Of a stretch of 64,000 nucleotides of DNA, positions 5,701 through 47,221 are shown piece by piece. The translations under genes and the position numbers were made by a program. The DNA is taken from NCBI GenBank assembly GCA_051294375.1, contig CM119263.1, forward strand, positions 2,842,326 to 2,906,325, given 5' to 3'. The notes under the pieces were generated by a model. The model did not search any database. It was not told the origin of the DNA and was given only the letters and a program-made list of their open reading frames with translations. How positions within the stretch are numbered: the stretch's first letter is position 1; the number at the start of each line of letters is the position of its first letter. This DNA is from Paraspadella gotoi. Lineage: Eukaryota; Animalia; Chaetognatha.

Positions 5701-8700
5701 TCGGAGTCGCTGGGGAAGCCGCACCTCACACTCCCTGATGACGAGAACGTTTGGGTGAGACGAGAGCGAGAGAGAGAGAGCCAGCGAGAGAGCTAAAATA
5801 ATTTGATTCCTGTTTTTTTAAAAAAAGTATTAAAAATGTTTTCGTTCTCACTTCTACTGAAATGTGAAACTGAAATTGTGAAATTGGTGAAATTAGTGCG
5901 TAAATAAATTTGCATAAATTTACCTAAATCCGTTCTTCTATGAAATTGGTACAACCAATATAAAAATTATCCATTCATTTAATAAAATAAGCTATCTTGC
6001 CCCTGACTTTGGACAGGCTTTTTTTTCTCTCTCGAACGTTTCATTTTCTTTAATAAAATTTCTTTTCCTTGCAAAACGTTCATTCTCCTCGTTAATTTGG
6101 TTTTCCCCAGGCGAACCGCAAGCAAAGCCCCATGTACGCGTCTCAAGCATCCTTCGACGACGCCCTCAAACTGATGGTCAACGAGATGAACGCGCGTCAA
6201 TCGACCACCCGCCTCCCCGACGAAGAAGTCCAGCAGGAATCCGAGATGGAGAAGAGCCTCTGGCGCAACAGCGTCGCTTCGCCGGATCTCAGCCCCACCA
6301 GCGCCGCTTCCAGCGTCCAACTACCTCTCAACAACCTCGTCGACACGCCGGACAACCCCGTCTCCACGACGAATCTCTCCGGCGACGGAACCTTCATCGT
6401 GGACAAACCCGTCTTCACCTACGACGACGCCCGCGACGCCGGTCCTTCCACGGGCCTGCACGTCTACAGCGTCTCACAGTCGAACCTTCAGTCAAAGGGC
6501 AAATCTCGACCGTCTCGTCGGTCTCGATTTCCAGAACCGGAAAAGCTCGAGTCTGTGCCTTCAAAGTCGGAACCTGCGATGCTTCGATCACTGAATTCTC
6601 AGCCGCGTCTCGGCGATTCGACGCTGACCGATTTCGAGTCCGACGCGTCCGTCAACGTCCCGTGGACGCCGCAGTCGAACGACGAGCTCTCCGGGCGAGA
6701 TTCCTCTCTGCCGCGACCGAGGTCCAATTCGCTGAAGCTAATGCAGCCGCTGGACGACGACGAATTGGATCGAAGATCGAAATCGATGCCGCGAGATCCT
6801 TCGGAGCCTTTGACTCGAGACGAACCTCGCCGCTCATTCTTCAAACCTCGCAAGACGCCGAGGGGAGTCAAGAAAAAGTCCAAGAAGTCGAGTTTCTCTT
6901 GTCTCTCTTCTGCCGCCAAGGACATTGATGATTTCGACGAAGATCGAAAACCCTTCGGTCCTCCGCGGTCCAAGTCCGAACCCGTCTTTGCTGAAGTCAA
7001 GAGCGAGGAAAACCTCCACGAACCATTGGGAGCAACCTTTAAGGCCGCTTCAAATGAGGGCACTCTGTCTAGTCCCCGAGAGGAGGAGCCCCAACGACCC
7101 GAGATCCGACCCGAGACCAGACCCGAGACCCAACCCGAACCGAAGCCGATGGTCCGCGGCGGCTTCGGCCGATTTTCCAAGTCGAAGGAGTTCAAGAAGG
7201 CGAAGAGCGCGCTGAAGAAAGTCGCCAAGTCTCCCAGCGCCTCGTGCCTGCCGCGGAGCCGGAAAGAAGAGGATCGATACGAAAAGAAAGAGAAGGAGGA
7301 GGAAGAGGAAAAGCCTAAGGAATCGACTCCTGTTCGAAAAGAAGTCGACGATCGCGACGAAAGCTTTGAAACAATCCCCATTCCAAAACCAGAAATCTTC
7401 GTGTCTTCCGCGCCCGCGACGAACGCTTCCGACGAGGTACTCGAACTTCCAAAGACTCCGGAGGACAAACCCCTCGACGCGTTTCCCGCTCTCTCGGACT
7501 CGCTCGATTCGGGACCGCTCAGCCCAGCGGATTCGGACGGTCTTACGCACAGTTGGGACAATACGCCCTTGCAATACGTGGCCGAAGCCGGACTGAGCGA
7601 ACGGGAGGATGAAGAGAAGGCTGAAGAGGAATCCCCGTCGTTCACCGTCAACGAGAAGAACGGCTTTTTGGTCGTATTTTCGAAAGACACTCAGGACGTA
7701 TCGGGATTAAGCGATACGGAAAAATTAAACGAGAGCTCGGAACCGGAACTAAGTTTATATTTTCCGCCTCATGAGGGCGAAAACGAAAAACAAAAGACCA
7801 ACGGCGATGACCAACAATCGAAAGAAAATTTGCTTATTCCTGCAGAGAAGAATAATTATCCGGTGATTCAAGACGAGGAAACTTCGACAAACTTCACAAA
7901 GCCTCTTACGGACCAACTGGCTCTTTCACTTGCCGACGAAGAGGAAAATAGCCGTGATGCCGCGATTAAAGATTTTCTTGATCAATGCATTGAAGACAGC
8001 ATCGTTTTGCTCGAGTCAAAGAAAAAAGGAAGTTTGAATGAAGCCACGAAAATTAAGGAAAAAGAGATAAATATCGAAGATATTCCTCAGATAAGTTTCA
8101 GTAGTGATCAAGATGACGTCGCCGATGATTTAGTCAAACCGATATTTTCAAATGACGACGAACAATTATCTCGTTTACCTCAAGACAATCTCGAAGATGA
8201 ACGTCCGAAAAATCAGGAAGAAAATCTAATTTCGTTGAAAACCGAGTCAGAAAACCCTGTAATAAAGGACTTTCTCGAGGAATGCATGAGGGACTGCTTG
8301 GAAAAAGTAAAAGATAAAGAGAAGAAAGAAGAGGAACAAAAGAAATCAGACGAGGAATTACCACCAACTCCAGTGGTAGAGGACGAAAGGAAAGGTTTTG
8401 ATGAAGACGATTTGCTTTTCAGCAATTTGCCACAACCGAATTGGGAATTGTTGGGGAATAACATGGAGGAGGATCAAGGCACGACGGACGATCTGCTCTT
8501 TAACGAATCCCCGCCGCCGGACGCATTCAAGTCAGATATTGAAACCGAACCATCGTATCTGGTCGATCTTCCAACCGACGACATCTTCGCTCAATTCTCT
8601 CCCGAACTCGACAGGCTCGACACCATAGAGGAAGAGTCCGACGACAGCGGTGAATACGTTTTAAATCACGATGGCTACAATTATTACGGGGAACAATCGA

Positions 8701-11700
8701 GGCCGCATCGACCTCTGCTACAAATCGACGAAGACAAAGACGAAATTCTTTCCGATGAACCTGAAACGGCGGAAGACGAATCTGGAGTTAAATCGTTAAA
8801 ACAGTTGTCGAACAAAGCGTTGGATTGTTTGGTAGATCAAAAATCCGAGGAAATCGTTAAAAAAATCAAGAATGAATTCGATATCTTTTTAACCGAGCCT
8901 TTGTTATCTCAAATTGAAGAATCGGCTAAGGACAAACTGCAGGAGATTTTAGAGGAAGAAAAAGATACTATAAACTATCATTCTATAGAAAAGGGCTTCT
9001 TAGACAAACCGCAATATTCTGTAGACCCCCTTCTGGAAACAACTCCTGTTCAACTTGCCTCGGTTGTTCCTTTAAAAGAAGAAGAGAAATTGAGTCAGGA
9101 ACCCGTTTTAAATGAATCGGAAAAGGAAAACCTGCCATTGATGAAAGACAATAGCAACGCTCTTCCAGATGATAAATTTGCGAATTATCCATTTTTTAAT
9201 CCGACTCCGTTAAACGTTTTGGACGATCCCGTCGAATTAGCAAATATTGACGATCCTCGCAAATCGGAAGATACTACAAGTTTAAATAGTTCCAAACATC
9301 CGTTAGATTTGCCAGACATTGAAAATTTAGTTGGAGATTTAATTACAAACTCTTCTCGACCATTCACGGAAACTGAGGATCAACAGTCAACCAAAAAAAA
9401 TTCTAGAGAAACGGGAAATGATAAAGAGAAAGTTATCGGAGAATTAGATTTAAATTCGATTCAAGACAACACGTTTAAAAATATTGACGATGCCAGACCT
9501 TTAGGCATTGAAGAGACCCTTGAAGGACTAGATAAACCCAAGGAGGAAGAAAAGTTTTACGAAAATCGTGATCCAAATATCGATTTTGAGAAAAACGGAA
9601 CAGTAGCTGATGATAAGACGCAAGAAGATCCCTATCCAACTGAATTTCTTGCACCAAAAGGTTTTCCGAAGAACGAGGACGAGATGCTTGCAAAAACAAT
9701 TTCGGACGCAGAATTAAATTTTTGCCCTAGTTATAATTTAAATGAACCTTCATCCAAAAACGATGACGATCACGAGCCTAATCATTTTCGTTCGGAAGAG
9801 GAGAAGGAAGTTGTTAATGAAAAACTAAATTTACCGGATGTTAAAAATTTGGTTGACGAGTCGATTTTAAATTCCTCCCTGACAAAAGATGCCGACTTAT
9901 TAGCGAGCGAGCCATATCGAGAATCCACATTGGATTCAATCAATGAATTAAATTCCTCAGAAAACCTTCGGGCCTCAGAAGCCAATCAAAAATTCAAGTT
10001 TGACGAAATCCCGCAAGCAGAAGGGAATGATGAATTCAATGAAACCAATAATGTCCCACCCCTTGAAATACATGAAATCAGTGAACCCATTAAAATTCTA
10101 GCCATTGGGAAAAATGAAATCGGTGAACCCGATCAAATTGGAAAAGATGAAATCAGTGAACCCGATCAAATTGGAAAAGATGAAATCAGTGAACCCGATC
10201 AAATTGGAAAAGATGAAATCAGTGAACCCGATCAACTTGGAAAAGATGAAATCAGTGAACCCATTAAAATTCTAGCCATTGGGAAAAATGAAATCGGTGA
10301 ACCCGATCAACTTGGAAAAGATAAAATCAGTGAACCCGATCAAATTGGAAAAGATGAAATCAGTGAACCAGATCAAATTTTACCATCTGAAAAAAATTTA
10401 TTAACACCAGACAAAACTCCAAATCAAATCCCTAGCGCTGATAAAATGAAAGATGAAGTACCCAGCTCTGAAAACGATTTTAGTTCACCTGACGAATTAA
10501 CTCCCTCTGAAAAAGATGAAGTTATTGAACAAATTCCTAGCACAGAAATAAATATCAGCAAGCCTGATCGAATTATAGACTCAGATACGGAAAAGAAAAG
10601 TGAACCCGATCAAAAGCCAATCACTGAACACAAGATCAGTGCCCCTGAAAAAATGTTCAACTCTGAAAAAAATGACCTCAGTTCACCTGACGAAATACCT
10701 TGCTCTGAAAAAGACAATGTTAATGATCAAGACAATATCAGCACACCTGATCAAGTCATAGACCCAGATTCGGAAAAGAAATTTGCACCCGATCAAACAA
10801 CCCCTTCTGCAGACGATCCTTCAGAGGAGAAGCCCCCTAGAGCAGTCACTTTTGATTTGCCAGAAATCAAGGAACCACCTGCAAGAGATACCGAAAATGA
10901 TGACGTTGACAGTTCAGACGATTTGCCCTTTCTAAGCGCGGACGAAACCGAGGAACCTCCTTTTCCGATCGACCCGAAATACTTCGAAGACTTCCCCAGT
11001 CTCCGGACACTGTCTCAATCTCGTGTGAATTCGAACGTGGAGTTGATCGTCGACATGAGAGTCTCCCAAGTCGCCTCCAAACACGATCTCAACAACGTGA
11101 CGACCCGACGAATCAAGAACAACGTCAACAAGGGAATATTGCAGCATTTGGAGTCGGTGGTGGCGGGAAATCCCCAGGGCCTCGTCGAGCGATTCGAGAA
11201 GCAGCGGGAGGAGGAAAAACAGTCTCGTCGCTATCCGCCGCAGTCGGACAGCGCGCAGGAGACGCCGACAAACTCTCCGCGAGCCTCAGTGGTCGGCCTC
11301 CCTTTTTTCGACGATCCAGACAAAGATCCCTACTCGCCGGAAAATTTCTTGTCGATGCTGCAAAACGGCTCGTCGGGTCTCGACGACGTCGACAGTGACC
11401 TCATCTCCGACAGCGAGAGCGACTCCACGTTGGATTCAGACAATTGGGCGTCGGCCGCAATGTCCGATCTGGCAGACTCGGAGAACAGCGATTCTACGTT
11501 GACGGGGGCGCCCTCGGGACGGCGACGGGTGCCGACGACCACGAAAGAGCTCGACGCCATGTATAACAAGCTGCTGCAGAAGCACAAGGAGTTGGGCGTG
11601 TCGGAGACGAGCGAGAGCGAGGACTATCTCACGGCCGAAGAGGATTGGCTCAATGGCGATTGGTTTTCCGATGACGCTAATTCGGATCTAAAAAACAATT

Positions 11701-11771
11701 CGTATCTCGCTTATACGCAGAACCGGGCGAGGATCAAACTGCAGCAGGGACGATCCCCTAAACGAAATTAG
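2795..11771 (+). CDS. Large (~2448 aa) disordered Ser/Pro-rich then Asp/Glu-rich protein, uncharacterised, possibly an AKAP-like scaffold; exons 2795-4001, 4931-5219, 5565-5754, 6111-11771
   Basis: Four exons join in frame through GT-AG junctions (phases 1,2,0): ...PFNNG|FHSPSP...RPTSIS|SRPRSTAR...DDENVW|ANRKQSPMYAS. An in-frame TAA at 2771 precedes ATG 2795, and an upstream donor (2542) and acceptor (2768-2769) imply a 5' non-coding exon. The last exon is a 5.66-kb uninterrupted ORF. No recognisable globular domain. Confidence 0.8.
3448..3920 (+). repeat. Coding tandem repeat, 36-bp unit with 72-bp higher order, encoding (x-V/I-T-P-V-D/N-P/A-F-G-S/N-x-x)n, about 13 units
   Basis: Translation shows PVTPVDPFGSLSHVTPVNAFGNAR repeated, with near-identical DNA units. 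Confidence 0.95.
10074..10378 (+). repeat. Coding 33-bp tandem repeat encoding (DEISEPDQIGK)n with two interspersed EISEPIKILAIGKN variants
   Basis: gatgaaatcagtgaacccgatcaaattggaaaa repeated almost exactly inside the large exon. Confidence 0.95.
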
Positions 11772-12368: not shown

Positions 12369-15300
12369 TTAGGCTACGTATTGATAGGAATTGGCGTTGG
12401 ACGCGTCTCGCTCCATGTAGTCGCGATCGATGAGCGATTCGATGCGTTTCTTCAAATCCGCCGGTTTCACGGGAAACTTGAGCTGTTCGTACAGTTCCGT
12501 GATGAGGAGATTGTGCGTCAGCGTTTTCCGCATTTTCATGATGCGCACGATGGCCGCATCGATCTGGTATTGACGATCCTGCGCGCGAAGTTGGGGGAAT
12601 TGAAAAATATCATAAAAATAATTAAATTTGTCAAACAAATCAAATTCTATGACTGGTTTATTATAATCATAGAAAATCGTTATGGTTGGGAACTTGGGAC
12701 GGGGCGTGTTTTAAAGCAATTTGAAAATCAACTTAACAGTGACTGAAAAGTAATTTATTACCTGGAAAACCCGTTCGGTGGTATTGACGTTTTCTTCCTG
12801 CGTTTCCTTCAATTGGATCTGGTTGATCTTGATTCGGTAGAGTTTGTGTTTGAAGGCTATAACAAAACCAAGTAAATTTAATATTTACATTTATTTTAAG
12901 TCCCAGGTAACGAGCAACAAGGTTTTGTACCGGCGTTAAACAGAAAAGAGTCGGTCTTCTCGACGTCTTTGGACGCGGGCTTTTTGCTGATGACCCGCGC
13001 CTTGCCGCAAGCCAACGACTGCAGCGTTCTCTTCAGTTCCTCCTCCTCAATCCCCGTCGACTGCTTGAGCTCCTCGAACGCCAATTCCTCCTTCTCGTTG
13101 AAGTTAAGAAGGACGAGCGTTTGGAAGAGAGACACCTGGAGGCGAGAATTCGTTGTTATGGTCACCTCACTCTCTTTCTCTCGTTTTTTTATTATTTGTT
13201 ACATTTTTTTTTAATTCATATAATTTAAAGTTCATAACATCTATGTACATTTTTATACAGCACATCCAAAATTTTATTTTTTGATTGTAAATTTGATTAA
13301 ACACTAATAAGCTTAATTAATCTATCTCTTTCTCTCTTCTCTTCTCATCTATGTATAATAAAGTGGAGCACTCAGAACAAAAAATTTATTTGAATGATTG
13401 AACAAGAATATTTAGATGTGAGATTGTATGATTAACTAGTATGAAAAATATTTTGTTCATATCGTCTCGGGAACAATAGTAAAATATAATATATTTGTAG
13501 TAATATTCTTATAAATACTAAATTTTAAAAATATTTTTTTAAAACTTTTAATAAAGATTCAGATTCTTCATAAAAAGTTTTAATCAAAAATATAATACAT
13601 GTTATCAAATATTCTGTCGTTTAAAACGGGAAAAAAGGTAAAAATTCATAACTTTTTTATTCTCTGTAGTAAAAACTTTAATATGTTAAAATGTTTTAGT
13701 CATTTTTTGCGATCCAAACATTAAAATATTGTATAACATATCTTATAAAAGTTTTTTACTTTTTTACGGCGAATACAAATCTGTTCTTAAAAATTAAAAA
13801 ACATTATTTTGAAATTTAACGATTTTATTTGGATATTACTATATAAATAATTGAATTTACTATACTGTTATACTAAAAAAATTTTTAAAGGATTTAAAAT
13901 TCATTAATTACATAACCATAGGCAGCAAAAAAATAATGTTCAATCGCTCAATCTTTTCATCACACCACCCTAATTTATAATAACCGGAAAAAATTTAAAC
14001 CTATGTAGTAGGCATTCGTCACCTGCAATTCTTTTTTGCCAGCAGAAAAATCCGCTTTCAAAACGCAATGTCCGAGCGATGGCTGCCACTGCAACTTTCT
14101 CCCACTGTATTTTGAAAGGTAGAACTTCTTAAACACTTCCTGGTATTTAACCATTTCGGGTGGCATGTGTACTTCCATGGGAGTGTAAGTTGGCCAATGA
14201 CCCTGAATATTTGCGAAACATGTTAAAAAGATAACAAAAGAGATTGACAAATTCAAACTGGAATATACCATTGTTAAGATATTGACGGTTAAATCAATAT
14301 TCGAAGAAGAATCCACTGTAGTCAAGTGTTGCTTAAAATTCAACATGAAGTCCTTGGACAACTCCATGTCTTTAAACATTCCTTCAAGCTTCGAAGTAAA
14401 TCCTCCGCCGCATTCCTGTTAAGTGTTAGTGTTGGAGTGTTAGTGAATTTTGTCAGTCGAAAAACATTATCACGTCAAGATGTTTAGAGAAAACGGAAAT
14501 GTTAAATCCACAAGAGAAACCTGTTTAAGCTTAGACAGCATTGATTTCTCCGCGTCGACGCTCGCACTTTTCCCGACCAGCAATCTTTTCGCGAGATCTT
14601 TTTTGTAGAAGGCTTCGAACACGTCTTTCCCGTGAATGAAACGAAACAGGACCATAATCTTATCTAGCAGTCGTTCAAGTTCCTGTCGTGTATCGATATA
14701 AATAATTAACATCAGTAAAAATAAATAATTAATAAATAAAATAAAAACAGCAAAATACGGAGGCAATGCAGAATGACCTCTTCTGTTGCCTCCTTGTTGC
14801 CGGCGCGCAGTTTCGTATCAACGAATTTGGCAATAAGTTCTGCAGGTTTATTTATTCTTGCATTGATGCAACTTTCGAAACTTTCTTTCATTCCATTGAC
14901 GAATTTTTCGTTGGATTGAAAGCAGTTAAGTATGATTTGATCCAGTTTATCCTAGCAAGAAAGTTTATAAACGTTAAATTTCATCATATAATATACATTA
15001 TACAGTAAGGCGGGCCAAAATTGAACACTTTTTATAACTTTTAGTTCTCTCAAAATTTTTTTTCCCTTCTATTACTAAATCGATTTTCAATGCAACTTTT
15101 TGAATTAGTTCATTGGGTTGTTGTACTGAAGCTTTTAAATATTTATTAATATATAACAAATTCCTATTGAACTTGACAAGTTAAATGAAAGTAAGTACTA
15201 CAATTTTTTAAAATTTTGACAATAAATTGGTTAAAAATAGAAAAAACCTTTATCATCATCATCATTTTATAGTTTTTTAAAATTTTTATCAATAAAACAA

Positions 15301-17653
15301 AAATTTTTAAAAAAATTGGATTAATAACCTTTATCTAACTTTTAAAGCTCTATTAGAATCTATTAATTTTTTTTTTAAATTTAAAAAAATTTAAAACTAT
15401 ATATAGTAATAAAATAATCTTTAACTGCTTCTGTGCGCTTATCAATAAGATAAATTATAAAAATTATTTTAATTTTCATACTCTTTAACAGTCACTTAAC
15501 CATTATTTATTTGAGAGAACTTCTAGTCTTTAACCTGTTCCGGCCTAATATGTATACAGCTATTACAGCTAATGCTTTCATACGTACAATATTATTGTCA
15601 ATAAGTAATATCAAGTATTCTTTTTTAAATCCTTTTTAGTAAAAAAACGTTTGAAAAACATTTTTATAACAATGTATTGACAACTTATTAAATAATTGAA
15701 ACGAACCTTTAAATCTAGAAGTTCTTGTACCATCACCGGATCTTTTTCAGGGTTGACGACTATGCACCTTCCAGTCAGTTTTATGTACTTAGCGAAATAG
15801 GAGCAAAGTTGAGTGAGGCCGTCTTTGACGCGAGAAAGGAGGCTGTAGATAAGAGTGAGGTCCTGCGTTCGATTTTGCTCCAGCAATTGATCCAAACCCT
15901 AAAAAAAAAGTAATTTCGTTAAAACAGTAATTAAACTAAATTTACAATATGCAGTGAGATTGAACGATAAAATGAAGAATTCAAAATTTTGCCGAAAACT
16001 AATAACTGTCATCACTCAAAATTTAATGTGGTTAGTTCAGGAATATACTAAGTGACGATGAGAATAACATTGATACCAAAGTCAAAGGTATAATACAAGA
16101 AAATCATTAACTTTTTAATCCTATACACAAAAGTAATTTCCACCGAAGAAAACGAATTTTTTTAATAAAATCAATTCTGATTTCCTCCAAACTTGACTCA
16201 CCTTCTCAAGTAATTGTACGACATGCTCTTGGAGAAGTTGTTTCTCGACGCAGCCGATGAGCGGTTTACGGGTGCTAGGATCGAGGTAGTGAAGAAGCCT
16301 TTCGTTTTCCTCGCTCAAGCGCTTGTCAACGTGGGCGAGGTATTCCGGGACGTCCCGTTCCTGCATGAGTCGTTGACCTTCCAAAGCGTAAAGCCTGTCC
16401 GTCGCCTGCGGATTCGGGGGATTCACAATTCGGTCCAACGAAAGACCTTTGGTGTTTTTGACGTTCCAACCTGCAAGAACTTGGCTTCGAAGGCTTCCTG
16501 GTAAATCTGAAGATCGGAGAGCATTCGAAGGAGACTCTTCAATAGTGATCGATCCACGGTGTCTCCGTGTCGCTCTTTCTCAATGAGCAAGAGCAGGCCG
16601 TCGACGGTCCTCGTCTGGACGAGAGGGTGAGAGATGATGTGCAGACGGAAGAGGTCGAGGCCCATGTCCCAGATGGAGAGAATCGACGAGGTCTGCATAC
16701 AAAAGGTGTTTGGACATGATGTTGTTCTTGGGTCATTGCTGCATGTAAACCCAAAATCATTTCACCTGCAAGACGTAGGTTCTATCCAGGAACAAAAAGA
16801 TTGATCTAATCATGATCATTTGTCGGCAGTGAGCCTGCCAACAATGATCGATATCTTTCAAAAATAAAACACTTTCGGTCATATCTCCTATGAACTGATT
16901 CAGTCTCGTTTTCACGTGGTCTTCGCATTGGTTCTTCAGATTGTCGTACAAGGTGACGGACATTTTGTGCGAGCACATGTTTTCCACAGCTTGGTACAGT
17001 TCCTCCAAAGAATAGCGAATGGCGGTGCTGTTGTGGATGGCCTCGACGGATTCCTTTAGCTTTTTCCAGGTTTCCTCTTGGTAGTTTTCAGGAAGTTTGG
17101 GTTTCTCCTTGAAGTTTTTAATCACCAGTTTCTTAGCAACGCCGGGTTTGTTTCCGATGTTTGAATATCGGGTGATCCCGTTCGTGTTGGAGAGAGCGGA
17201 AAAACCCGCTGGGCGTTTAAGCTGCTCACCCATTCCGCTCCCCTTTGATCGCTTAGTCGGCGGTGAAGTTCCAGAAAATTCGGCTGAAGGTAAGAAACAA
17301 TAAGAATTTATGACAATAAAAATGAAAATATTGTGATGAAATGGTAAAATATTAAATCTAGTAAATAAATAAGAGAAGTAATAATAATAGTAATAATAAT
17401 AATAATAAATAGATAAGAAAAAAGAAATTTTAAGATCACATTATACAATAATAAAAGAAGCAACGGTTATGTAATTAAAGGACGTCTTTAGTTTAACTAA
17501 AAGTTATATCATAACAACAAATAATATTACATTTTATATTAATATTTCCTATTAAATGATAAATAATTTACCCGAGGCTCTTCGTTTCTTTGTGACAGAG
17601 TTTTCTGAACGACTTTCAATACCGTCCTCTTTGATTATTTTTGATAGTGGCAT
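12369..17653 (-). CDS. CUL4: Cullin-4 (CUL4A/B-like), ~796 aa, 12 coding exons: 17653-17572, 17283-16766, 16692-16471, 16405-16202, 15898-15707, 14951-14778, 14682-14521, 14415-14269, 14202-14023, 13135-12931, 12856-12762, 12578-12369
   Basis: Hallmark CUL4 peptides: [75 protein letters not shown], and C-terminal [20 protein letters not shown] (neddylation motif) ...[10 protein letters not shown]...YQYVA. Exon lengths sum to 2391 nt (797 codons) with GT-AG introns. The start codon is slightly uncertain because the frame stays open upstream of 17653. Confidence 0.96.
15009..15545. mobile_element. AT-rich non-autonomous DNA transposon (MITE, PIF/Harbinger Tourist-like), copy 1, in a CUL4 intron
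   Basis: Diverged reverse-complement copy of 34528-35166. Termini GGCGG...CGGCC with TAA on both sides (15006-08, 15546-48). Confidence 0.7.
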
Positions 17654-17935: not shown

Positions 17936-18939
17936 CAGTAATAAATAATCTAGAATAACCATAGCAAATTTATGAATACAAATCCAACTCTAATCCAAGA
18001 TTCCGAGGAATTACGTAACCCTCCCCGCGCCATGAGTCCATGACAAAAACCAACGTCCGTAAAAATACGTACGTGTCTAAAGCACGGGCGGTAGACTATC
18101 GACGGGGCACGTTCTCCGTAAAGGGTCGCGGTTACGGTTGCGCGGATGGAGCAGGGATTGGACGGGGATCGGAGAGACGAAGAGGGTTCATTTCGTAGAC
18201 GAGTTCGATGAATGAATGGAGAGAAGGAGACGAAAACGACGACAGAGACGGAGATGGTGCCGGTCACGTGGTCTCCGTCGATGAAGACAAATGAACAGTC
18301 GAGTCTAGACTCAAGACAGTCAATCAGTCAGGATTCAGTCCAGACAGAAGAGATCAGATTATGTTAATAACTTAATTGGTTACGCAATCAAGTCCATTCT
18401 TGTCTTGTGAAAATAAAAAATCTGATATTACTTTAGATTTATTTAACTTTTATATTTTTAGTTCTGAAAATCATCGGAATTGACATTTATATGAAAATTT
18501 TCTTTTATTTTGCTTTTATATATTTTTTTTCAGCGAAAAAAATATTTAATTTTTGATGATTAAACGTGTACACAATTTTCTTTATTGGTAATTCTGTAGA
18601 AAAAACAATAACTCAATGACTAGTTTTCCCGAGAAGCCGAGGATATTTTCGTAATCAAATCTGGGATTTTCTCTCCGTCTCCTTCGCGAGCAACGGAGAT
18701 TCTTGACGCGTAATCCCGCCGTCGCCGACGTCTGCCATCTGCCGTCCCAGCCAAACTGACCTTGGACGAAGGAAAGATATCTCTTCAAATTCCGGCAAGA
18801 AAAGCCGGAAATCTCGCCGTTTTTGACTCAAAAACTTGTCTGTTATATGTTTTAGATGTCGGATAATTTTCTTTCCTAATATTTTGTATTATCTTCCGTC
18901 ACCTGATCGTTTTTCACGTTGGTCACGTTTTCGTTACAG

Positions 18940-21751
18940 ATGCTCGCCATCCTTCCGACCATCCGAGGCGTCGGCCGATTTGGCGTCGCGGCCCACGCCT
19001 TGAGGAGGGCGAGGCATTTAGAAGCGTTGAACAATAAACTCTCCGTCAATTGCGCTAATTCTGTTCGGTATTATAATAAGGACTTGGACCATCACCGCCA
19101 ACTAACTCAACGGGAAGAAGACGAATACCATCGAAACACCTACGATTACCTTCCGGAGCCGAGGGGGTCTTGGGAGGAAGGGAATCGGCAACGTCAGAAG
19201 AAGTACAACACAATTCTCGCTGCCGGCGCCGCCACGTTTCTCGGCACTTTTCTCGCCGGTTTCGCGGTTCTCGGCAAAGATGCTTACTGGAACAACCCCC
19301 CTCATGAAGCGATCGGAGTCAATCCACCCGTCTTCACCCTCAAAGAAATGGAGGCCGAAGCTTTGGCGGCGGTAGGGGAAGAGGGCGCGGAGGAGGCGGA
19401 CGTGAATAATAGCAACGTCGCCTCCGTCGAAGAAAAGGCGGAGCCCGCGGCGGAGATCTCTACGGAAATGTCGGCGTCCGCCTCCGCCTCCGCCGAAGCA
19501 GAAATCCCCGTCGATGAGGCCGAAGACGCGGGGCCAGTTGTGGAGGAAGCGTCGCCCGAAGAGAAACCGGCCGACGTCCAGGCCGAGAAGGCGGTCGAGG
19601 CGCAAGAGACGCCGCCAGCTGCCCCAGCGACTCCGCCTCCCGTCCAGTCGACTCAAGTGGTGACGTCCCCAGGTACGATCGTGGTTATGACCCCTGGAGA
19701 TCCGTCGGCAGCAGCAGGTTCTGCGTCCCACTTGTTCAGATATCGTGACAATAGCAAGCAGAGTTGAACCAATCGCGAACGAAATTGCCTTCGTCTTGGT
19801 TTTAACATTTGGAATGTCTTTTTGACTACAAGATAATCAACAGTTCAACGCCGAATCATGCTAAAAACTGTTTTGATCTGTACTACTGTTCAAAATTTGC
19901 TAATTGTATTTATATAATAAAAAAATTGGTTTTCGATGATCAGCGGTTGATTGGTATAATTTTTACTAAACAATTTTCTCTAACTAATTTTTATTAAACT
20001 TGAGGAACCCGTTTTCTTTTTATACTTGCTGAATTAGTGGGATCAGAACTTGCAGTGCTGCCGCTACAGTTTCTCGAAATAAACTTCTCGTCTTCTTGCA
20101 CCAACTTTAAAAAACTGTTTCCGTCTTTCCTCAGAGGAAAAGACTTCCCTTCAAGATGCGATTCCCGATATTCCGTCCCACGTGCCTTACTTGCTTATTG
20201 GTGCAGGAACCGCTTCCTTCGCGGCATACAGGTACTCATAGAATATTGTTAATCTAAATGTTTTATTTACTTATAAAATTCACTCCTTCAGAGCGATCCG
20301 ATCCCGCGATCCCAAGGCGAAGGTGCTTCTCGTCGGCGAGGAGGATGTCCTGCCCTACATGCGCCCTCCCCTTTCCAAGGAATTGTGGTTCGGCGAAGAA
20401 GAGCCGGCGGATGACTCTCTCACCTTTAAGCAGTGGAATGGAAAGCGCCGGAGTCTCCTCTTCGAACCCGGCGCCTTTTATTGTAAACCTGGCGAACTTC
20501 CGGCCAAAGAAAATGGGGGCGTGGCCGTGTTGGCGGGAAAAAAGGTCATCAAGCTGGATCCCTCGACTCAGAAAGCCACGCTGGATGACGGGTCCCAGAT
20601 CCATTATGAAAAATGTTTGATCGCCACGGGTGGAACTCCGAGGTGAGTTGGTGACGGAGTTAAAAACTTGTGAACAAAATCTAACTTTTTACGATGATTT
20701 TTTTTTTCATTTCAGGAACGTCCCTGCTTTAGAAAACGGGGACAAAGGCTTCGAAGACCGCGTGACTCTCTTTAGAAAGGTCGAGGACTTTCACCGCCTT
20801 TACTCTATCGCCAAATCCAGCGGCCACATTGCGGTGATCGGCGGCGGATTCCTGGGCTCTGAACTCGCCTGCGCCCTGGGTCACGTGGCCAAGAAACGGC
20901 AGGGCGATCTGCGGGTGACTCAGCTCTTTCCAGAATCCGGGAACATGGCAAAGGTTCTCCCCGAGTATCTCTGCAAATGGACGACAAAGAAGGTTAAAGC
21001 TGAGGGCGTGGAAGTGGTGCCCAACGCCCACGTGACCAGCGCTGCCATCGAAGACCACAAAGTCAAACTCGTTCTCAACAACGGAGAGACTCTTCGCGTG
21101 GACCACGTCGTCTCCGCCGTCGGCATCGAACCCAACGTGGATCTGGCCAAGTCCGCCGGACTCGAAGTGGACGAGCATCTTGGCGGATTCGTCGTAAACG
21201 CGGAGCTCCAGGCCCGCGGCAACATCTGGGTCGCCGGCGACGCTTCCTGCTTCTACGACATCAAGCTTGGACGGCGCCGCGTGGAACATCACGACCACGC
21301 CGTTGTCAGTGGTCGGCTCGCCGGCGAAAACATGACGGGCGCCGCTAAACCATACTGGCATCAGTCCATGTTCTGGAGTGACTTGGGACCCGAAGTCGGC
21401 TACGAAGCCATTGGGATCGTCGACAGCCGATTGCCGACGGTCGGCGTCTTCGCCAAAGCGACAGAGCGCGACACACCCAAGGCCGTTGTCGAGGAGACGG
21501 GCGAAGGCTTACGGAGCGAGTCGGAAGCCGTCGCCGTCGCCAACGTCTCCGCTAACGCGGACGTCCCGGCCGTCGAAAAAGATGATTTCGGGAAGGGAAT
21601 CATTTTTTACATGAAACAGAAAACAATCGTGGGAATTGTCCTGTGGAACGTCTTCAACCGGATGCCCATCGCAAGGAAGATTCTCAAAGATGCCGAGGAG
21701 CATGAGGACATGAACGAAGTGGCTAAGTTGTTTAAAATCCACGAGTCATGA
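18940..21751 (+). CDS. AIFM1: Apoptosis-inducing factor 1, mitochondrial (FAD/NADH oxidoreductase), ~738 aa; exons 18940-19672, 20135-20231, 20292-20642, 20716-21751; N-terminal Deltameth_res/COX7B-like segment
   Basis: [18 protein letters not shown] (FAD binding), [37 protein letters not shown] (NADH binding), [53 protein letters not shown]. Exons sum to 2217 nt in frame. Basic presequence-like N-terminus. Confidence 0.96.
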
Positions 21752-22157
21752 ACCGGCCGTTCAGAATACGATTAAATAACGCGCGTTATCTAAGCATATA
21801 TTTTTTTTAGTTTAGAAAGGTGTCAGTTTTCATACATATCCGTGAAAGTCTAAGCAAGTTAATTCTTTATATATAATTTATAGCTCAATATTAATATTTT
21901 AGTAATAATTCGCATTATACTAGTTTAATTTTGATACTGTGATAAGGTGATCTCGTCATCAGATCTAAGAGGTAGCAATTCCAAAATCTGAGAATTCTTT
22001 TTTTTTTAAATCGAATCCCATGTTTTGCGCTATGAAATCTCCTCATCGACGTTGGCTGTTCATGAGCATTGTTTCACTTGTTGATTACTAATTAGGTATT
22101 TCGTGCAGGTCTTTTGACTTTTTTTCGTCGACGGCACATTTTTTGTAAAGCAGAATA

Positions 22158-35860: not shown

Positions 35861-38800
35861 GAGAGAAAGAGAGACAGACGTTCTCTTGAAAAAAAAAGTT
35901 ATCGATTGAGTAATCTTCTTTGTTGAGGTCGTCGTTTGAACAGAATTGATCATAACCACTCGTAACTTCGCTATACAAAATTACCAATAATTTTCAAAGA
36001 CTGTGGATCAGCCTTCAATCACCCTCAAAACTGATTCCAGGTGCAGGACGACTTGATAATGTCGTTTGGTCGAATTAACTTAAAAAAAATTACTTCCCCA
36101 TCTTTGATTGCTTGATAATGACCTCTCCATCACTGAAATTATTAATAATGACCTTCCCATCACTGACCGTCCTGATATTGACCTTCCCATCACTGACATT
36201 CTTAATAATGACCTCCCCATCACTGACCTGCTTGATTATGACCTTCCCATCACTGACATTCTTAATAATGACCCTCCCATCAGTGATATTCTTGATAATG
36301 ACCTCGCCATCACTGACCTGCTTGATTATGACCTCCCCGTCGCTGTAGTACTGCGGCACGAGTGCGTCGCAAACGTTCATCCTCTCGTCGTCGTCGAGCC
36401 ACTTGAGGATTGGGACGCTCTCGAGGAACTTCTCGTAGGTCTTGCGACGCATCGCTTCTCTCTTGATGACCACGCGGCGGAAGCTGGGTTTTCAATGCGG
36501 ATTGTTCAATGTAATTTGTGCGATTGGCATATAAAATAATGATAAGTTTAAGTTTAATTCGCTTATAAGTTGCAGCGATGGAGGAATTACTATCTGAAGC
36601 CTTGAAGTTTGGATCAGTGGAGTATTGACTTCAGTTCTAAAGCTTTCACGAAATCTAAAAGACATAATCTTCAAAGGTTTCATGAATGTGAAACAAAAAC
36701 CCAAGCATTTAAAATTGTCTTATATCTCATGTCATCAAAAGAAAAGCAACAATCATCCTTTAGATTACTTGAAAGTTTTTTCCCTTTTAGGCTTTTTCAA
36801 ATTTTTTCGTTATTTTGCTCGGTTTTTTTTTTAAACCTCAAAGTTTTGAATTTAATCTTGAGTGAAGTGGATGAACAATGAACGCCATTTTTACTTTCGT
36901 CGCCGTCGTCGACGCGATGGTCGCTGTTGACCACGCCAAAGGTTAGAACAAGAATAACCGGGTGTAGTTTATCTCAATCGGCAGACGCTGAACTCATGCG
37001 TTGGTTGTATTGTATGCAAGGGAGTATTGTATTCTATTGAAATCAGTAGCCACTTGGTCTTTAGGATCGAGAACTTTCCCAGGATAAAGGGCGAAATTTT
37101 GACAGATGTTATTCAGTGTTCATCCCTCACATTTTCAATTAAAGGCTCGCACATGGGTAGGTTAAGCGAGGCTCAGGGCGGCGGATGGAGATCTGTGAGC
37201 GTCTTCAACAAACACGTGAAAGAAGCATACGCCTTTGCAAGTGACGTAATGTGGAAGGAATCTCAGTTGGTTGCTCGTGGCTTTGTTGCAGCCCAGGAGC
37301 AGGTGAGGAATTGAAATCGGTCACGACAGAGGATTGAGGAATGGTGAAAATTGGTGAAACTAAGGATCAGTGAGATAAAATGAGGTGAGTTGACAAAGTT
37401 TGTGGATGGCAATTCGACAGAATCGGTTAGAGATGAGTTAGAGATGGAATTGCTGATATATGGGTATGGTTATGGTAATGGGTAGTGTTAAGAAAGGATT
37501 TATGTAATTTATATATGGACATGTTAGCGATTACCGTGATTTATCCATTAGATTGAGATCCCAGATGTTTCCCACTCCTCACAGGTGGTGTCTGGCTGGA
37601 ACTACCGACTTTATATGACCTTCCTCTTCGAATTCCGTGTCTGCCGAGTTGGCGTCTGGTGGGAGAACCGCAATATGTTCCAGAAGACTTCCTTTGTAAA
37701 TGCGATTGGTACTTAGACTCAGAGAATTAGAAAGGTAAAAAAAAGCAAATGGCGGTGAAAACGAAAAAATCCGGAAGAAAAAAAAAACACGGATGACATA
37801 GTTATGTTTTGTTTAATAAAATAATCGGTATTTTAGATTTCACGAAACGTTTGTTGTATTTAAATTTTAATATATGTATGTATGTTTCTTTTCCAATCTC
37901 TCCGTGAAATTCTCACTCTATGCCTTGACAACGGTTTTTTTTTTTGGCGGCGCCTCGTTTCTTGGCAACGGTTCCATTAAATTCCCGCCAGGCCCAAAAA
38001 TACTTTGTGGTCAGTTTTGGTGACCCTTGTGGTCACCTGTGCTGATCCATCGTCCAAAGGACCCCGTCTGTCTTAGCGATGACCGTCGCCGACCGAGGCT
38101 TGTTGTACATGAGAGCCAATTCGCCGAAATAGCCTGCGGTCGCCGAGTAGTGGACCATGAGGTAGGGTAGGGTGTTCCAGGGAGGGAAGGGGTCAAAAGA
38201 AAAAAATGTGTCAACGTCGTTTCATTTTCAATAAATAAAAATAAATATTTAAAGTTAACTATATGTCAACGGTCGAATATATTTATGATTTTATCTCAAA
38301 ACAATTAAATTTATTTTTTATTTTTTTGATTCGTTGAAATTGGTAAAAAAGTCCAATTCAAGAACAGCTGCTTTGAAATCAATTGACTTGTCAATCGCTG
38401 AAAAGTTTAAAATTTACAGAGAAATCGTCCCTTGTTAATCCCCGCGTAACAGAATTTCAGTTCTAAAATTAAATCGAAAATCCGGGACGAGGATTTAATT
38501 TTCAAACTTGATGTCCCCTCTGCCGCCTCGTTAAAAAGTCCTCCCGCGAAAGTCCGCCCACTCTCCCACTCACCGCAGTTGGTGTGAGTGGCCACGAGGC
38601 GTTGCTGTCCGTTCTCGCTGTCCTTGACGAAAATGTCGAAAACTCCAGAATCGATGACGTAAAAGTTGTCGCCGTCCTCCCCCTGGCGGATTATCTCCTC
38701 GCCTGGAAATCGGGGGTTGGGGTGGCGTGGGTGGGTTTAAATGAGCGGGGAGGATGGATGGAGGTGGGGAAACTGGATCAGATTTGAGTTTTTTTGGGGG

Positions 38801-42907: not shown

Positions 42908-45841
42908 CTCCAAATGCTTTACGGCTTTGTACGCTCATCATAACATGTGTACATTGTGTAGTATTGTAGTATTGCCTTTGTAATCTTTTGAAAAGAATAA
43001 ACCATACTCCGATTAAACCTTGCGTCGTCGACATCTCCTTCCCACGCCTTACCCACACCCTACCCACCCACACCCCTGAACACTCACCAGCGAGGACCTT
43101 CCGCCTCGAACATGACGTTGAGGACGTCGCCTCTCGCTTCCCGGTCGAGATTCTTGAAGACGAAGACATTTCTTGACGCTTCGGCGAGACGTTGCGTTGC
43201 TCCTCCGTCTTGGCCGCGATGGGCGTGGCGGGTGGGTCGAGATCCTCGTCGTCGTCCGGGTTGATGGGCTCGTTGGAGACCGCCTTGGGCGAGAGGGGGT
43301 GGAGAGGGGGTTGGATGGAGGGAGACATGGGGTCGTTCGTTGATCACTCTCTCGTAATATCGTGAGTATTCCCGCCTCTTTCTTTTTTTTTTTAAATGAC
43401 TGCCGTCGGCAACATCTAAAGCACCGGAAAGACCGTAAAGGAATCACCATTACATAATGAAATGGATCGTAAATTTTGATGAGGAAGAGAGAAAGGAAGA
43501 TGGAGAGAAGAATGATGGAGATAAGAGTGTATGGAGTAAGGGAGTGGGAGGATGATAGTGATGGAGAAAGGATGGAGGAAGGAAGATGAAGGAAGGATTG
43601 ATGGAGTTAGAGTGATGGAGGAGGAAGTGAGGCATGTGGATTAAGAGCTGACTGGTGTCTGAAAACTTTTTGAGATAGAAGTTTAGAAACAGACTTTATT
43701 TATTCGCCGCCAAAAAAAAAAAAAAAGATATTTTTTCCCCTCGGCAATATTGGATTTCTAAAATCTAGTAGACACAATTCAACCCCGAAACAATTTTTTT
43801 TTTGCCGATCGACCGAATTCCCTTCCAAAAAAAAATGGCGGGTTCTTTCTTCGAGGGGAAAAATGGAATTTTTTCCACCAAAGATTGAAATAGAAAAAAG
43901 AAAATCAGTTTCCCCAAAATCTGTCATCTCACGTTATTGAGTCCGTAACCAACGTTCGCTGTATCGTGAAAACAAAGGGAAAAATGAAAAACCCTTTTTT
44001 TTTGTCAAAAATGTAAAACAGTTTTTGGCACGAACGAAAATGAAAATCTCTACTGATCCGGAGAATAGTCTCTCGCTTAGTCAAGCGAGAATATTTTTTT
44101 ATTAATACNNNNNNNNNNNNNNNNNNNNNNNNNTACTTTATGAGCTTTTCCTCTGGTCTTGCGAGCGAGACGGCTTTTTTATCATATTTTTTTTCCCGAA
44201 GCAACCTTGCCAAAGTGCATTTGGTGGAGCATGCGGACGAGCCTTTCAGTTAAATGCCTCTTGAATCACTTGAGTGCATGCGGACGAGCCTTTCCACGTT
44301 AAAACGCTCCCTCGTATCTCACCTTTCTCCTGAAGCACTTTGACCCCCTGGCGGAGTAGCGTTGCGGACGAGCTGTCTTCGACCTCTGCAGAAGAGTGTC
44401 CCCGTTCCTTCGTATCCTTGGAATCCATGCGAGAGCGATTCCGAACTCGCGCCTCAGAGCGGCACTTCGCGAGGCTAGAAAATTAAGACAAAAAGGCAAG
44501 GGATAAAATGTACTTTGTATTATTACCTGTATTTTCTGCGGTAGTATTTCATACCCCGCTACTCAATTGTATTAGTTAAATTAGTTATTTCATGCTTAAG
44601 GTTTTGGCTGCTTATATTAAAAATAATTCAAATTTAAAATTAACGAATGAGTTAAGCCTTATGTTTGCTTCCTTGAATTTAAAATAGGTTTTTTAAGAAC
44701 CGCGCTCGATCGTCGGTGCCATTGCCTCCATTGGTTCCATTACATCGATTCCATTGCGCACGGAACTTAAATCCGATTCTAAAACCGATAAAACTAATGG
44801 CGGTGAAAAAATTCTTTTTTTTCTTGTTTCACTCACCGAATCTGAGGAATCACGTGATCTCGATGCATCTGTGATGTGAACTTGAAACTCGGCAAGATCT
44901 GTGAAATGGATGAGAGAATTTGTGAACAAGAAATTCAATGATAAAAGTTATATTAATAATAAAAAGATTTAAATACTTATTGAAAAAAATATTGCAAACA
45001 AAATCTATTAAATATCTGCTACTCAAATTGAATTGAATGACAAAAAAATCCGTGCGAGAATCCGCCGACGACGCGAATAGGAAAACAAGTCAATGAACTT
45101 CCATTTTTTTATAAAGTCACCCAATCGAAAAATCTGTAAAATCCCAATTTTATCTCTCGAAATTTTTCACAACGAAACCGCGCGAAAGAACAATAGCTCC
45201 TTATATTTCCAATCCAATATTCACAATCGAAGTCGAAGTAAGGAAAAATCGTGATTTGAGTTTCGCACCTGCGTTTGACTCAAAAGTCACGTGATTTCTT
45301 GCGATGAGTTTCACTCTTTTCAGTTCACAGTGAAGGATGAGTGCTAATGCGAGAGCTCATCGAGAAAGAGAGAGAGAGTAATTCTTATATCACTGATTAA
45401 ATTTAATTATTACTATAATGTAGGGTATAATTAGGTGATCTTGTGCAATCTTTGAAATGTGGTCACGTGATCAGAAAGTCAACTCAAAGTTTTAGGCGGA
45501 GCTGGTTGACTATTTTTCAAACACTTAATAAAAATAATTATAAAAAAATGATATAAATTATGTTTATGAGAAAAAGATTTGTAATCTTGAACATAAAAAT
45601 GAATATTTTTGCCGACATGTTTTAGAATGTTTAAACACAAACATTTTTTTAAAAAAGCCAAAGGGCTAAACAAGTTACCGCAACATGCAAATGAGAATAA
45701 GGATAAGAAACGGGATTATTTACCTGGCCCGTTCCTGCGGCGACTGAAAAACTGAAGGGCGAAGGAGGCGACGTCTTCGGGTTGAGCGTCAACGAGGTCG
45801 ACAATGAAGTCGCGCAAGACTTCGCCGACGCCGGAAGGAAC
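24987..45841 (-). CDS. PRKAR2: cAMP-dependent protein kinase regulatory subunit, type II-like and divergent; exons 45841-45724 (D/D domain), possible 44898-44837, 44474-44323, 43283-43088 (duplicated at 41278-41080), 38702-38574, 38133-38037, 36483-36318, 27803-27689, 25150-24987; start exon not resolved
   Basis: RIIa-type [36 protein letters not shown]; linker FRRK|AV(S/C)NEPINPDDD; [24 protein letters not shown]; [17 protein letters not shown]; [21 protein letters not shown]; [21 protein letters not shown]; C-terminal [19 protein letters not shown]. Splice phases are compatible. Both copies of the duplicated exon contain indels. Confidence 0.9.
25494..25541 (-). ncRNA. Minimal type I hammerhead ribozyme motif (PLE-type), mirror copy
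   Basis: Reverse complement reads aaatcg-CTGAAGA-a-gactctt-aata-aagagtt-GAAA-cttg-TC-cgactt, identical to 27486-27533. Confidence 0.75.
27486..27533 (+). ncRNA. Minimal type I hammerhead ribozyme motif (PLE-type)
   Basis: Core CUGAAGA (27492-98) plus an extra A, 7-bp stem II GACUCUU/AAGAGUU with AAUA loop, GAAA (27518-21), vestigial stem III AC-UU-GU, GUC cleavage triplet (27525-27), and short stem I aaatcg/cgactt with one mismatch. Confidence 0.75.
29954..34132 (+). CDS. Transmembrane channel-like (TMC family) protein, divergent, nested antisense in a PKA-R intron; exons (start uncertain)-30414, 30905-31075, 31136-31404, 31488-31744, 31989-32114, 32181-32522, 32586-32929, 33028-33337, 33672-33839, 33962-34132
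   Basis: TMC motifs: [100 protein letters not shown]. All ten exons splice in frame with GT-AG. Several candidate ATGs (29954, 30013, 30168, 30206). Confidence 0.88.
34528..35166. mobile_element. AT-rich MITE (PIF/Harbinger Tourist-like), copy 2
   Basis: Reverse-complement homolog of 15009-15545. Termini GGCCGG...GCCGCC with TTA on both sides (34525-27, 35167-69). Confidence 0.7.
36095..36345 (-). repeat. 30-bp minisatellite (~8 units) derived from the 3' end and donor site of a PKA-R exon; reads ([11 protein letters not shown])n in frame
   Basis: Units such as gtcagtgatggggaggtcattattaagaat repeat with exact 30-nt period. The first unit is the exon end SDGEVIIKQ|GTCAGT. Confidence 0.93.
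36878..37716 (+). CDS. Cystatin-like small protein (~117 aa), nested antisense in a PKA-R intron; exons 36878-36941, 37145-37302, 37585-37716
   Basis: Spliced product [21 protein letters not shown]|[53 protein letters not shown]|[43 protein letters not shown]. Has an N-terminal GGW, helix VKEAYAFA, and QVVSGxNY split by a phase-0 intron. Total 354 nt in frame. Confidence 0.78.
39074..39310. mobile_element. Short element with imperfect terminal inverted repeats and internal degenerate TTAGGG-like repeats; related sequence at ~54025-54230
   Basis: Left gccatattttcctgaagatccctatttta resembles the reverse complement of right taaatggggcactttcggaaaatagcgg. 54025 begins ggcctattttcccagaacgccccatttta followed by a similar ttaggg/ttagga tract. 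Confidence 0.5.
40143..44070. repeat. ~2-kb direct tandem duplication (about 40143-42137 and 42138-44070) including one PKA-R exon
   Basis: The two copies are collinear end to end and differ mainly by single-base indels. A 25-N gap follows at 44109-44133. Confidence 0.9.
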
Positions 45842-46254
45842 CTGAAGAGGGCGCGAGTAGTTTGATCGAGGGGGAAAAACAAAATGGCGGCGGATTTGAA
45901 AACAATCGGGGACAAATGTTTTAAAGATCCTTAGATGACTGCGATATTTTTTTTTATGTTAAAAACCAGCAAGTTTTTTTTTATTTTACGTATACTAGTA
46001 TATATCCATTTTAATATGTTCAACTGTAGAATGAATCCGCAACACGTAGTTAATTTAAAATCTTTGAAATAAAATTAATAGTTAACGAAAAAGTCTCGTG
46101 AAACGATAAGATAAATCCTCTCTTTCTCTCTCTCTCGTAGTGAATATTTGATGAAGAAATGGTTTTTGCCGTCAATACGAATAAGCTAAGGGATTCCATC
46201 GAAAAATCCGCGAAATATTCATGAGAAAAAGGAAAGATTCTCCAGTGCCATCCG

Positions 46255-46288
<34 letters not shown>

Positions 46289-46379
46289 NNNNNNNNNNNN
46301 NNNNNNNNNNNNNGCTCTCTCTCTGTCCTTTCTCTATCGTCTCTCTCTTTTTTTCTTTCTCCGTCTCTTTCTCTCCTAG

Positions 46380-46910
46380 TGATCAATATTTTCATGCCCG
46401 ATATTTCTTCCTCCTTTTTTTTTTCTCTTTGTTTTCGCCAATTTTTCTCTCCCTTCCCTTTTTTATTTTCTCGTTTCCTTCCTCATATTTTTTTTTTTTT
46501 TTCGCTGCCGGGGGGTTTTTTTTCGCTTTTTTCCCATTAATTCCGCCATTTGCGGTCGTCGTTAAAACGGAGACAAAATAGCAACGGCGATGTTGTTTTT
46601 TCTCTCAGAAGAGTCGTCCAGGGTTTTTCGAGCGAAAAAAAAAAAACAGCAGGTTGTTAGCTAAAGAGTGTTCAAATTCAATTTCATCGGCAATTCATCA
46701 AATCGCAAACTACGTATAGTCCGTATCTATTATTCAATTATTCAGTGTCTTGACGATAGAGTTTGACGGGTAAAACTAACAGAATGTTACCAGAGTTTAA
46801 TTAGGTTTCTAAAACTTGTCGCCATTCCAAACTTGCTAAATGTTCTCTTAATCAGTTAATGTAATTTGATGCGTCAATATCTCTCCTTCATTGTTCCTCT
46901 TCCATATTTT

Positions 46911-46959
<49 letters not shown>

Positions 46960-47122: not shown

Positions 47123-47163
<41 letters not shown>

Positions 47164-47185
47164 CGTCTCTCTCCTCTCTCAGTCT

Positions 47186-47221
<36 letters not shown>

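Follow-up and report, generated by a model that had tools for sequence, protein, structure and literature searches.

A COX7B-like Deltameth_res module spliced to the AIF oxidoreductase in the chaetognath Paraspadella gotoi, and its possible tethering to complex IV

Can the membrane anchor of the flavoprotein apoptosis-inducing factor (AIF) also be a subunit of cytochrome c oxidase (COX, complex IV)? The question is raised by a stretch of 64,000 nucleotides from Paraspadella gotoi (GenBank assembly GCA_051294375.1, contig CM119263.1, positions 2,842,326 to 2,906,325 of the forward strand), hereafter the window, from the first letter of which all positions are counted. Here, the first coding exon of an AIF gene encodes a predicted presequence, a COX7B-like module of the Deltameth_res family, a conserved helix and an acidic spacer, and the remaining exons encode the enzyme. 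We found that the module and the oxidoreductase are joined in one spliced mRNA and that the predicted proteins of relatives display the same architecture; it appears somewhat probable, as judged from sequence, that the fused AIF is tethered to complex IV by the module. Gene fusion is strong natural evidence of two proteins working together. The role of AIF in the respiratory chain is still debated, and a fusion of this kind ties AIF to cytochrome c oxidase.

The spliced coding sequence of 2217 nt is open as far as its TGA stop, and the three introns that interrupt it (462, 60 and 73 nt) are all bounded by GT..AG. Transcript evidence was taken from assembled contigs of sequencing runs, the RNA nature of which is guessed, with a minimal exon overlap of 31 letters for a contig to support a junction. 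For the interval 18800-21900, 71% of the sampled words are present in one run, X1, which is approximately the exonic share. A single X1 contig of 2105 letters matches the window, with no mismatches and no gaps, in the blocks 19076-19669, 20132-20228, 20289-20640 and 20714-21775; it spans from upstream of the module to past the stop codon, and all three introns have been removed from it at GT..AG. A contig of X2, a run from a different study, crosses the junction of exons 2 and 3 and has only 28 letters in exon 1, so that its support for the first junction is weak. In X3 and X4, runs from other organisms in the study of X1 (80% likeness), there is one AIF contig, which starts 113 letters upstream of the flavin adenine dinucleotide (FAD) motif and hence too near to it to tell whether that species is fused. 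No X1 contig was found on 19736-20047 within intron 1, which still leaves rare isoforms possible; retention of this intron would bring in a stop at 19765-19767 and give a stand-alone product of 275 residues (open reading frame 18907-19767). Two further observations concern the transcript: the intron in the 5' untranslated region (5'UTR; 18795-18939) has a GC and not a GT donor, and two X1 contigs depart from the window, at 19497 in the GCC-repeat part of the spacer and at 20691 in intron 3, into sequence absent from it, for which alleles, paralogues or assembly joins are conceivable.

No in-frame ATG occurs upstream of 18940, back to the stop at 18711-18713. Exons 2-4 hold neither a start codon nor a presequence or other targeting signal nor a hydrophobic segment, and AIF from this gene depends on exon 1 to be imported and anchored. 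The enzyme has the domain order of AIFM1-type proteins, Pyr_redox_2 followed by AIF_C: exon 4 matches AIF_C (PF14721) with 190.5 bits and Pyr_redox_2 (PF07992) with 94.6 bits, and the glycine motifs for FAD (GAGTAS, GxGxxG at residue 267) and for reduced nicotinamide adenine dinucleotide (NADH; GGGFLGSE at residue 436) are both present. Compared with the AIF proteins of other animals, its final 344 residues show 65-73% identity.

The first-pass annotation of this DNA had placed, between a presequence and an Ala/Glu/Pro linker, a 55-residue peptide with the pattern of the Deltameth_res family, in an exon spliced to those of the oxidoreductase. All of this was borne out. The interval 19138..19302 translates exactly into that peptide, residues 67-121 of the exon 1 product; an N-terminus of net charge +6 precedes it and the acidic spacer follows; and the junction 19672/20135 lies within the 2105-letter X1 contig, which has no mismatches. 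In the Pfam comparison the module matches Deltameth_res (PF16020) with 48.0 bits (E-value 1.1e-12), where the gathering cut-off is 27, and the whole 244-residue product of exon 1 scores 43.7 bits (residues 71-108, profile positions 3-40 of 52). No other Pfam family, COX7B and AIF-MLS included, matches exon 1 at E <= 10. By these profile scores, the identity of the module as Deltameth_res is far beyond chance. It contains the family core P-x-G-x-W ... Q-x3-N-x2-L, directly followed by one transmembrane helix, and a six-frame motif scan found one copy of it in the 64-kb window. Thus, PF16020 occurs here as a domain within a 738-residue protein and not as a small free subunit.

Residues 1-45 probably act as a mitochondrial presequence, and residues 1-25 align to the N-terminus of a fused relative, P0157. 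Outside residues 92-110 no Kyte-Doolittle window exceeds 1.6 across the 738 residues, and the charge flanking this helix is +2 on its N-side and -1 on its C-side. In an AlphaFold2 model of 88 residues (mean predicted local distance difference test, pLDDT, 76.6), residues 78-111 form a single unbroken helix, the block-mean pLDDT being 93-98 for model residues 21-50 (protein 78-107), and a further helix occupies model residues 77-87, within the post-membrane motif NPPxF[ST][LM]xE..A..LA. In the alignment of the six closest sequences (A2), N71, P72, P73, F75, L85 and A86 are invariant; the NPPxF[ST][LM]xE motif is restricted to these closest relatives and missing from most other members of the family in the wider alignment A1. 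Structure searches had little to separate: Foldseek of the model against PDB gave nothing at E <= 0.001, and a wide VIA-align structural search gave generic long helices only (Z <= 4.5), a single helix being not discriminating. The nearest ESM Atlas clusters, all below 0.9, were NDUFB8, a Deltameth_res cluster (0.87), ESSS, SDH7 and COX6A, and serve as leads only.

An exhaustive phmmer comparison of a 68-residue module sequence with 1.84 billion representatives yielded 22 matches at E <= 0.001, with lengths of 56-285 residues and no full-length fused AIF among them. The 24 rows of A1 comprise 20 of these 22 matches, the window module and the module parts of P0157 and P0060; the repeat protein P0126 is left out, P0148 stands in for its cluster-mate P0123, and P0137, one of the 20, is entered as its module part. 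The first-pass annotation had proposed a survey of combined architectures. PF16020, Pyr_redox_2 and AIF_C occur together in P0157, an environmental record of 1121 residues whose alignment to the window exon 1 begins at residue 1 (E 4e-29, 39% identity) and which has a cluster-mate, P0003, with 73% identity in the AIF part, and again in P0060, a protein of 624 residues from the chiton Liolophura sinensis. P0137 (285 residues) contains the module and a spacer, and its record ends at the beginning of AIF. In the same survey, word-index searches for longer proteins with the module region or A1 came back blank, which is weak evidence, and two metagenome locus searches found no relative. Among the best 120 AIF proteins (at least 603 residues), precomputed Pfam assignments and a profile search placed the module in one, P0060; this list is mostly vertebrate and no fair survey of how frequent the fusion is.

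Within A1, P17, W21 and N33 are invariant and G19, Q29 and L36 nearly so, and the window module retains all six. The invariant P, W and N and the near-invariant G are kept in all four fused modules, and the near-invariant Q and L have one exception each, both in P0060. The fused modules thereby retain the matrix-side P-x-G-x-W motif. The spacers vary greatly in length, from 42 to 499 residues, and are acidic in three of the four fused forms. Five short records (P0122-P0125 and P0148) consist of a presequence, module, helix and short acidic tail only and in this resemble the window exon 1 by itself; their contigs measure ~1 kb, and the records are possibly gene fragments and amount to no proof of a free form, and P0144 extends beyond the end of its cluster-mate P0122. 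Two exon-1-like relatives, P0123 and P0149, also share the translated leader LSSFNLFK before their start methionines, which may represent a trans-spliced leader that the gene caller translated along with the protein.

Positions of the features of the AIF gene within the window, and spacers of the four fused forms
Feature	Positions	Strand	Details
AIF gene	18940-21751	+	four coding exons, 738 residues
Non-coding 5'UTR exon, 3' end	18764..18794	+	end of X1 contig record 1 matches 18764-18793 exactly
5'UTR intron	18795-18939	+	GC..AG; donor G/GCAAG, acceptor AG 18938-18939
Coding exon 1	18940..19672	+	ATG 18940, 244 codons + 1 base; donor CAG/GTACGA; junction 19672/20135 in X1 contig
Predicted mitochondrial presequence	18940..19074	+	residues 1-45; net +6, 7 Arg/Lys, first acidic residue at 28
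Deltameth_res / COX7B-like module	19138..19302	+	residues 67-121; PF16020 48.0 bits vs cut-off 27
Only predicted transmembrane helix	19213..19269	+	residues 92-110; best 19-residue Kyte-Doolittle window 1.93
Post-membrane motif NPPxF[ST][LM]xE..A..LA	19321..19374	+	residues 128-145; predicted short helix on the intermembrane-space side
Acidic Ala/Glu/Pro/Val-rich spacer	19375..19672	+	predicted disordered; continues into exon 2
Intron 1	19673..20134	+	462 nt, GT..AG; skipped in X1 contig
Exon 2	20135..20231	+	end of spacer and FAD-binding GAGTAS motif (20200-20217)
Exon 3	20292..20642	+	N-terminal part of Pyr_redox_2; PF07992 45.4 bits
Exon 4	20716..21751	+	remaining Pyr_redox_2, NADH-binding GGGFLG (20840-20857), AIF_C (~21320-21691), TGA 21749-21751
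Spacer, window gene			149 residues (111-259, end of transmembrane helix to FAD motif); net charge -27; A+E+P+V 58%
Spacer, P0157			499 residues; net charge -132
Spacer, P0137			189 residues; net charge -31
Spacer, P0060			42 residues; net charge +5

What, then, connects a Deltameth_res module with complex IV? The connection comes chiefly from Drosophila, where the Deltameth_res protein CG7630 has been described as the COX7B homologue, as the first-pass annotation had stated; it co-purifies and co-precipitates with COX subunits and is needed for COX, a case based on biochemistry (Brischigliaro et al. 2022, EMBO Rep; PMC9346487, in its passages on this protein). In complexome data of Anopheles (PMC10434966, in the part on this protein), the CG7630 orthologue groups with complex IV. 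In our own comparison of the A1 profile with 177,635 distinct PDB sequences there were four matches at E <= 10, three of them COX7B, and no Deltameth_res protein. The COX7B chains lead the ranking, weakly (7o37_k, E 0.52; 8pw5_x, E 0.84; 5z62_K, E 1.5), the alignment covers the helix start K-Y-N...L-A-G-G...F, and the fourth match is a ribosome modulation factor (E 1). This search repeats independently the weak HHpred link of Brischigliaro et al. On the AIF side, the association of mammalian AIFM1 with cytochrome c oxidase was likewise confirmed in the literature, bovine AIFM1 dimers having been found on ~10% of monomeric COX (Hevler et al. 2021; PMC8488679).

Taken together, we propose a mechanism in which exon 1 contributes a presequence-like N-terminus, a COX7B-like module that crosses the membrane once, and the acidic spacer that leads to AIF. 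After import and probable cleavage of the presequence, the module would span the inner mitochondrial membrane with its N-terminus in and its C-terminus out, the basic N-flank lying on the matrix side and the enzyme in the intermembrane space, a topology suggested by the charge distribution and by the known arrangement of AIF and of COX7B. The module would likely occupy the position of COX7B in cytochrome c oxidase, assembling as CG7630 does in Drosophila, with the spacer as a putative flexible tether, and the NADH/FAD oxidoreductase would thereby be held to complex IV. A far bolder version, which we rate as improbable, makes the AIF-linked module the sole COX7B-like subunit of the lineage, so that every complex IV monomer would carry an NADH-oxidising flavoprotein bound to it by a covalent tether and the acidic tether would hold basic cytochrome c near the oxidase. 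An acidic hinge protein is thought to hold cytochrome c similarly at complex III. If true, this version would render AIF a true subunit of complex IV and not an occasional partner.

Several points weigh against the tethering. Docking to complex IV is deduced, for any fused form, from family membership, and the Deltameth_res-COX7B link is weak by sequence alone, both in our searches (E 0.5-1.5, with no Pfam COX7B match at E <= 10) and in the published HHpred comparison (E 0.24-0.46; PMC9346487, in its passages on the homology). The cross-link model of the mammalian complex puts the AIFM1 helix by MT-CO2, NDUFA4 and COX6B1, away from COX7B, whose one contact is with the loop at the C-terminus of the second AIFM1 protomer (Hevler et al. 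2021; PMC8488679). The position of COX7B is opposite the COX dimer interface (PMC9346487, in its structural passages), and a module at this site would hold AIF on a side other than the mammalian one, although spacers 42-499 residues long could reach across the surface of the oxidase all the same. Such a spacer, long and acidic as it is in most fused forms, nevertheless fits a loose leash and demands no defined interface between AIF and COX. The transcripts, too, are contigs of a run that was only guessed to be RNA. Finally, if a free COX7B-like gene also exists in this genome, the fused copy need not enter complex IV, and the two COX7B-family proteins listed for Octopus bimaculoides in Dataset EV1, where it is not stated which of the two, if either, is fused (PMC9346487), suggest that a free copy may exist beside a fused one. 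Hence, while all the sequence-level parts of the tether put forward in the first-pass annotation hold, it is no simple mirror of the mammalian contact, the mammalian AIFM1 helix not lying at the COX7B position.

There are other explanations of the fusion. The module might have been taken over merely as an N-in/C-out stop-transfer anchor, with AIF free in the inner membrane and a separate COX7B-like protein serving complex IV; we regard this as unlikely, if still worth serious thought. The range of spacer lengths (42-499 residues) and the paired Octopus bimaculoides entries of Dataset EV1 (PMC9346487) would suit such an origin, as would the anchors of vertebrate and echinoderm AIFs, which are unrelated to the module (at most 1.9 bits; hhalign probability 1.3%, below the reversed control), so that AIF can evidently function without it. 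However, a relaxed anchor should drift, as that of the vertebrates has, and the window module clears the Pfam cut-off by a wide margin; the invariant residues of the matrix side and the helix persist in the fused modules of all four sources, with the two near-invariant exceptions in P0060. Since the matrix-side P-x-G-x-W motif is needless for a mere anchor, its retention is the strongest argument for tethering instead. It is quite improbable, in our estimate, that the fusion serves co-expression and co-import only, the precursor being cut in the acidic spacer into a free COX7B-like subunit and a soluble AIF of the intermembrane space. A long Pro/Glu/Ala-rich spacer that is predicted to be unstructured is likely open to proteases, mammalian AIF is indeed freed by cleavage just past its helix (Otera 2005, as cited in the passage on this in PMC9346487; also discussed in PMC8488679), and the short records P0122-P0125 and P0148 look like the N-terminal product. 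Yet there is no known cleavage site or processed product, those records come from ~1 kb contigs and are perhaps fragments (P0144 continues past the end of P0122), and the chiton spacer is short, at 42 residues, and basic.

That a COX7B-like gene and an AIF gene are separate neighbours, linked by nothing more than sporadic read-through splicing or a mis-assembled contig, is scarcely credible. The exon 1-2 junction is backed by one contig in one run and a 28-letter overlap in a second, and both runs are assembled contigs taken by guess for RNA. Against this, AIF exons 2-4 by themselves lack a start codon, presequence and membrane segment, and intron 1 is free of X1 contigs; P0157, P0060 and P0137, from other organisms, show the same order in one frame, and the fusion has been published for three further taxa (PMC9346487, in its passages on the fusion). 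Tethering through the COX7B-like module is accordingly the explanation that we prefer, and the gene would make any organism that carries it convenient for asking biochemically whether AIF can be a built-in subunit of complex IV.

The neighbours of the AIF gene in the window are of diverse kinds. Head-to-head with it lies a multi-exon Cullin gene (12899-17440, minus strand), of which seven open reading frame pieces match PF00888 in order from profile position 1 to 618; X1 contig record 1 (1786 letters) extends upstream beyond the AIF 5'UTR in the direction of this gene. About 400 nt past the AIF stop begins a gene for VDAC, the eukaryotic porin (22158 to ~23500, plus strand; PF01459 on two exon pieces), so that two proteins of the mitochondrial membranes or intermembrane space are tandem neighbours. 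Further away, an unbroken open frame of 1891 codons at 6096-11768 (plus strand) matches no Pfam family at E <= 1e-5; Glu, Ser, Asp and Pro abound in it, and it is likely an exon of a large disordered acidic protein. An exon-sized open reading frame at 38410-38736 (minus strand) matches the cyclic-nucleotide-binding domain PF00027 with 28.8 bits. The last third of the window contains assembly gaps, with 12 runs of N (1442 bases in total) at 44109-58684.

The comparison with known systems is most direct for AIF itself. The window protein shares with vertebrate AIFM1 the overall plan of presequence, one helix, linker and enzyme, and in the final 344 residues the oxidoreductase and AIF_C parts show 65-68% identity. 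The anchor region, by contrast, is unrelated, in agreement with what the first-pass annotation had said of it: vertebrates match AIF-MLS (PF14962), with 40.3 bits for a shark AIF, and the window exon 1 does not match it at E <= 10. Comparison of the module with 36 vertebrate anchors by hhalign gave a probability of 1.3% and a score of 15.5, below the reversed control of 20.0, and none of the three vertebrate and echinoderm AIFs tested has PF16020. As the vertebrate anchor is no diverged copy of the module, AIF can function with an unrelated one. The idea that the module is the ancestor of the AIF anchor in all bilaterians was rejected, vertebrate and Holothuria AIFs scoring at most 1.9 bits against the module profile (HMMER).

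On the side of the oxidase, mammalian COX7B (PDB 5Z62 chain K and 7O37 chain k) is single-pass like the module, and its K-Y-(G)-N-A-I-L-A-G-G...F aligns to the K-Y-N-x-x-L-A-x-G...F at the module's helix start, at E 0.5-1.5, which is not significant alone; COX7B is without the module's matrix-side motif of ~20 residues (PMC9346487, in the passage comparing the two). With CG7630 and the other stand-alone Deltameth_res (prag01) proteins the module has in common an invariant core, P-x-G-x-W ... K-Y-N ... L, and the single transmembrane helix behind it. Stand-alone Deltameth_res proteins have 56-159 residues among the matches found, whereas the window module makes up the N-terminal tenth of a flavoprotein of 738 residues and, unlike the CG7630-type proteins, is followed by the extra NPPxF[ST][LM]xE helix.

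The closest parallel is the published one. The first-pass annotation had supposed that the architecture might exist unremarked; in fact, a CG7630 homologue fused to AIF had been described in several protostomes, with entries from a barnacle, Octopus and Daphnia and the fusion point at the module C-terminus, on the intermembrane-space side, and the fusions had already in 2022 been linked as a Rosetta-stone to the mammalian AIFM1-COX complex (PMC9346487, in its passages on the fusion). A search of the later literature for COX7BL or COX7B-like, and for AIF with deltamethrin resistance, turned up only this paper. The argument that the fusion links AIF to COX and therefore supports the AIFM1-COX complex cross-linked in bovine heart is likewise made in it. 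The window gene is thus a further example of the fusion kind described in 2022, and no discovery. The published passages on the fusions contain no transcript evidence or conservation analysis. What is added here is a transcript-supported example; further fused relatives, in the form of the chiton protein, the 1121-residue environmental protein and the broken-off 285-residue protein; the retention, in fused modules, of residues conserved in the free complex IV subunits; a tether that varies greatly in length and, in three of the four fused forms, is acidic; and a clear negative on homology to the vertebrate AIF anchor. The window gene agrees with the fusions of the barnacle, Octopus and Daphnia as described in those passages: the module lies N-terminal to AIF in the same order, the predicted topology is the same, and so is the proposed Rosetta-stone meaning.

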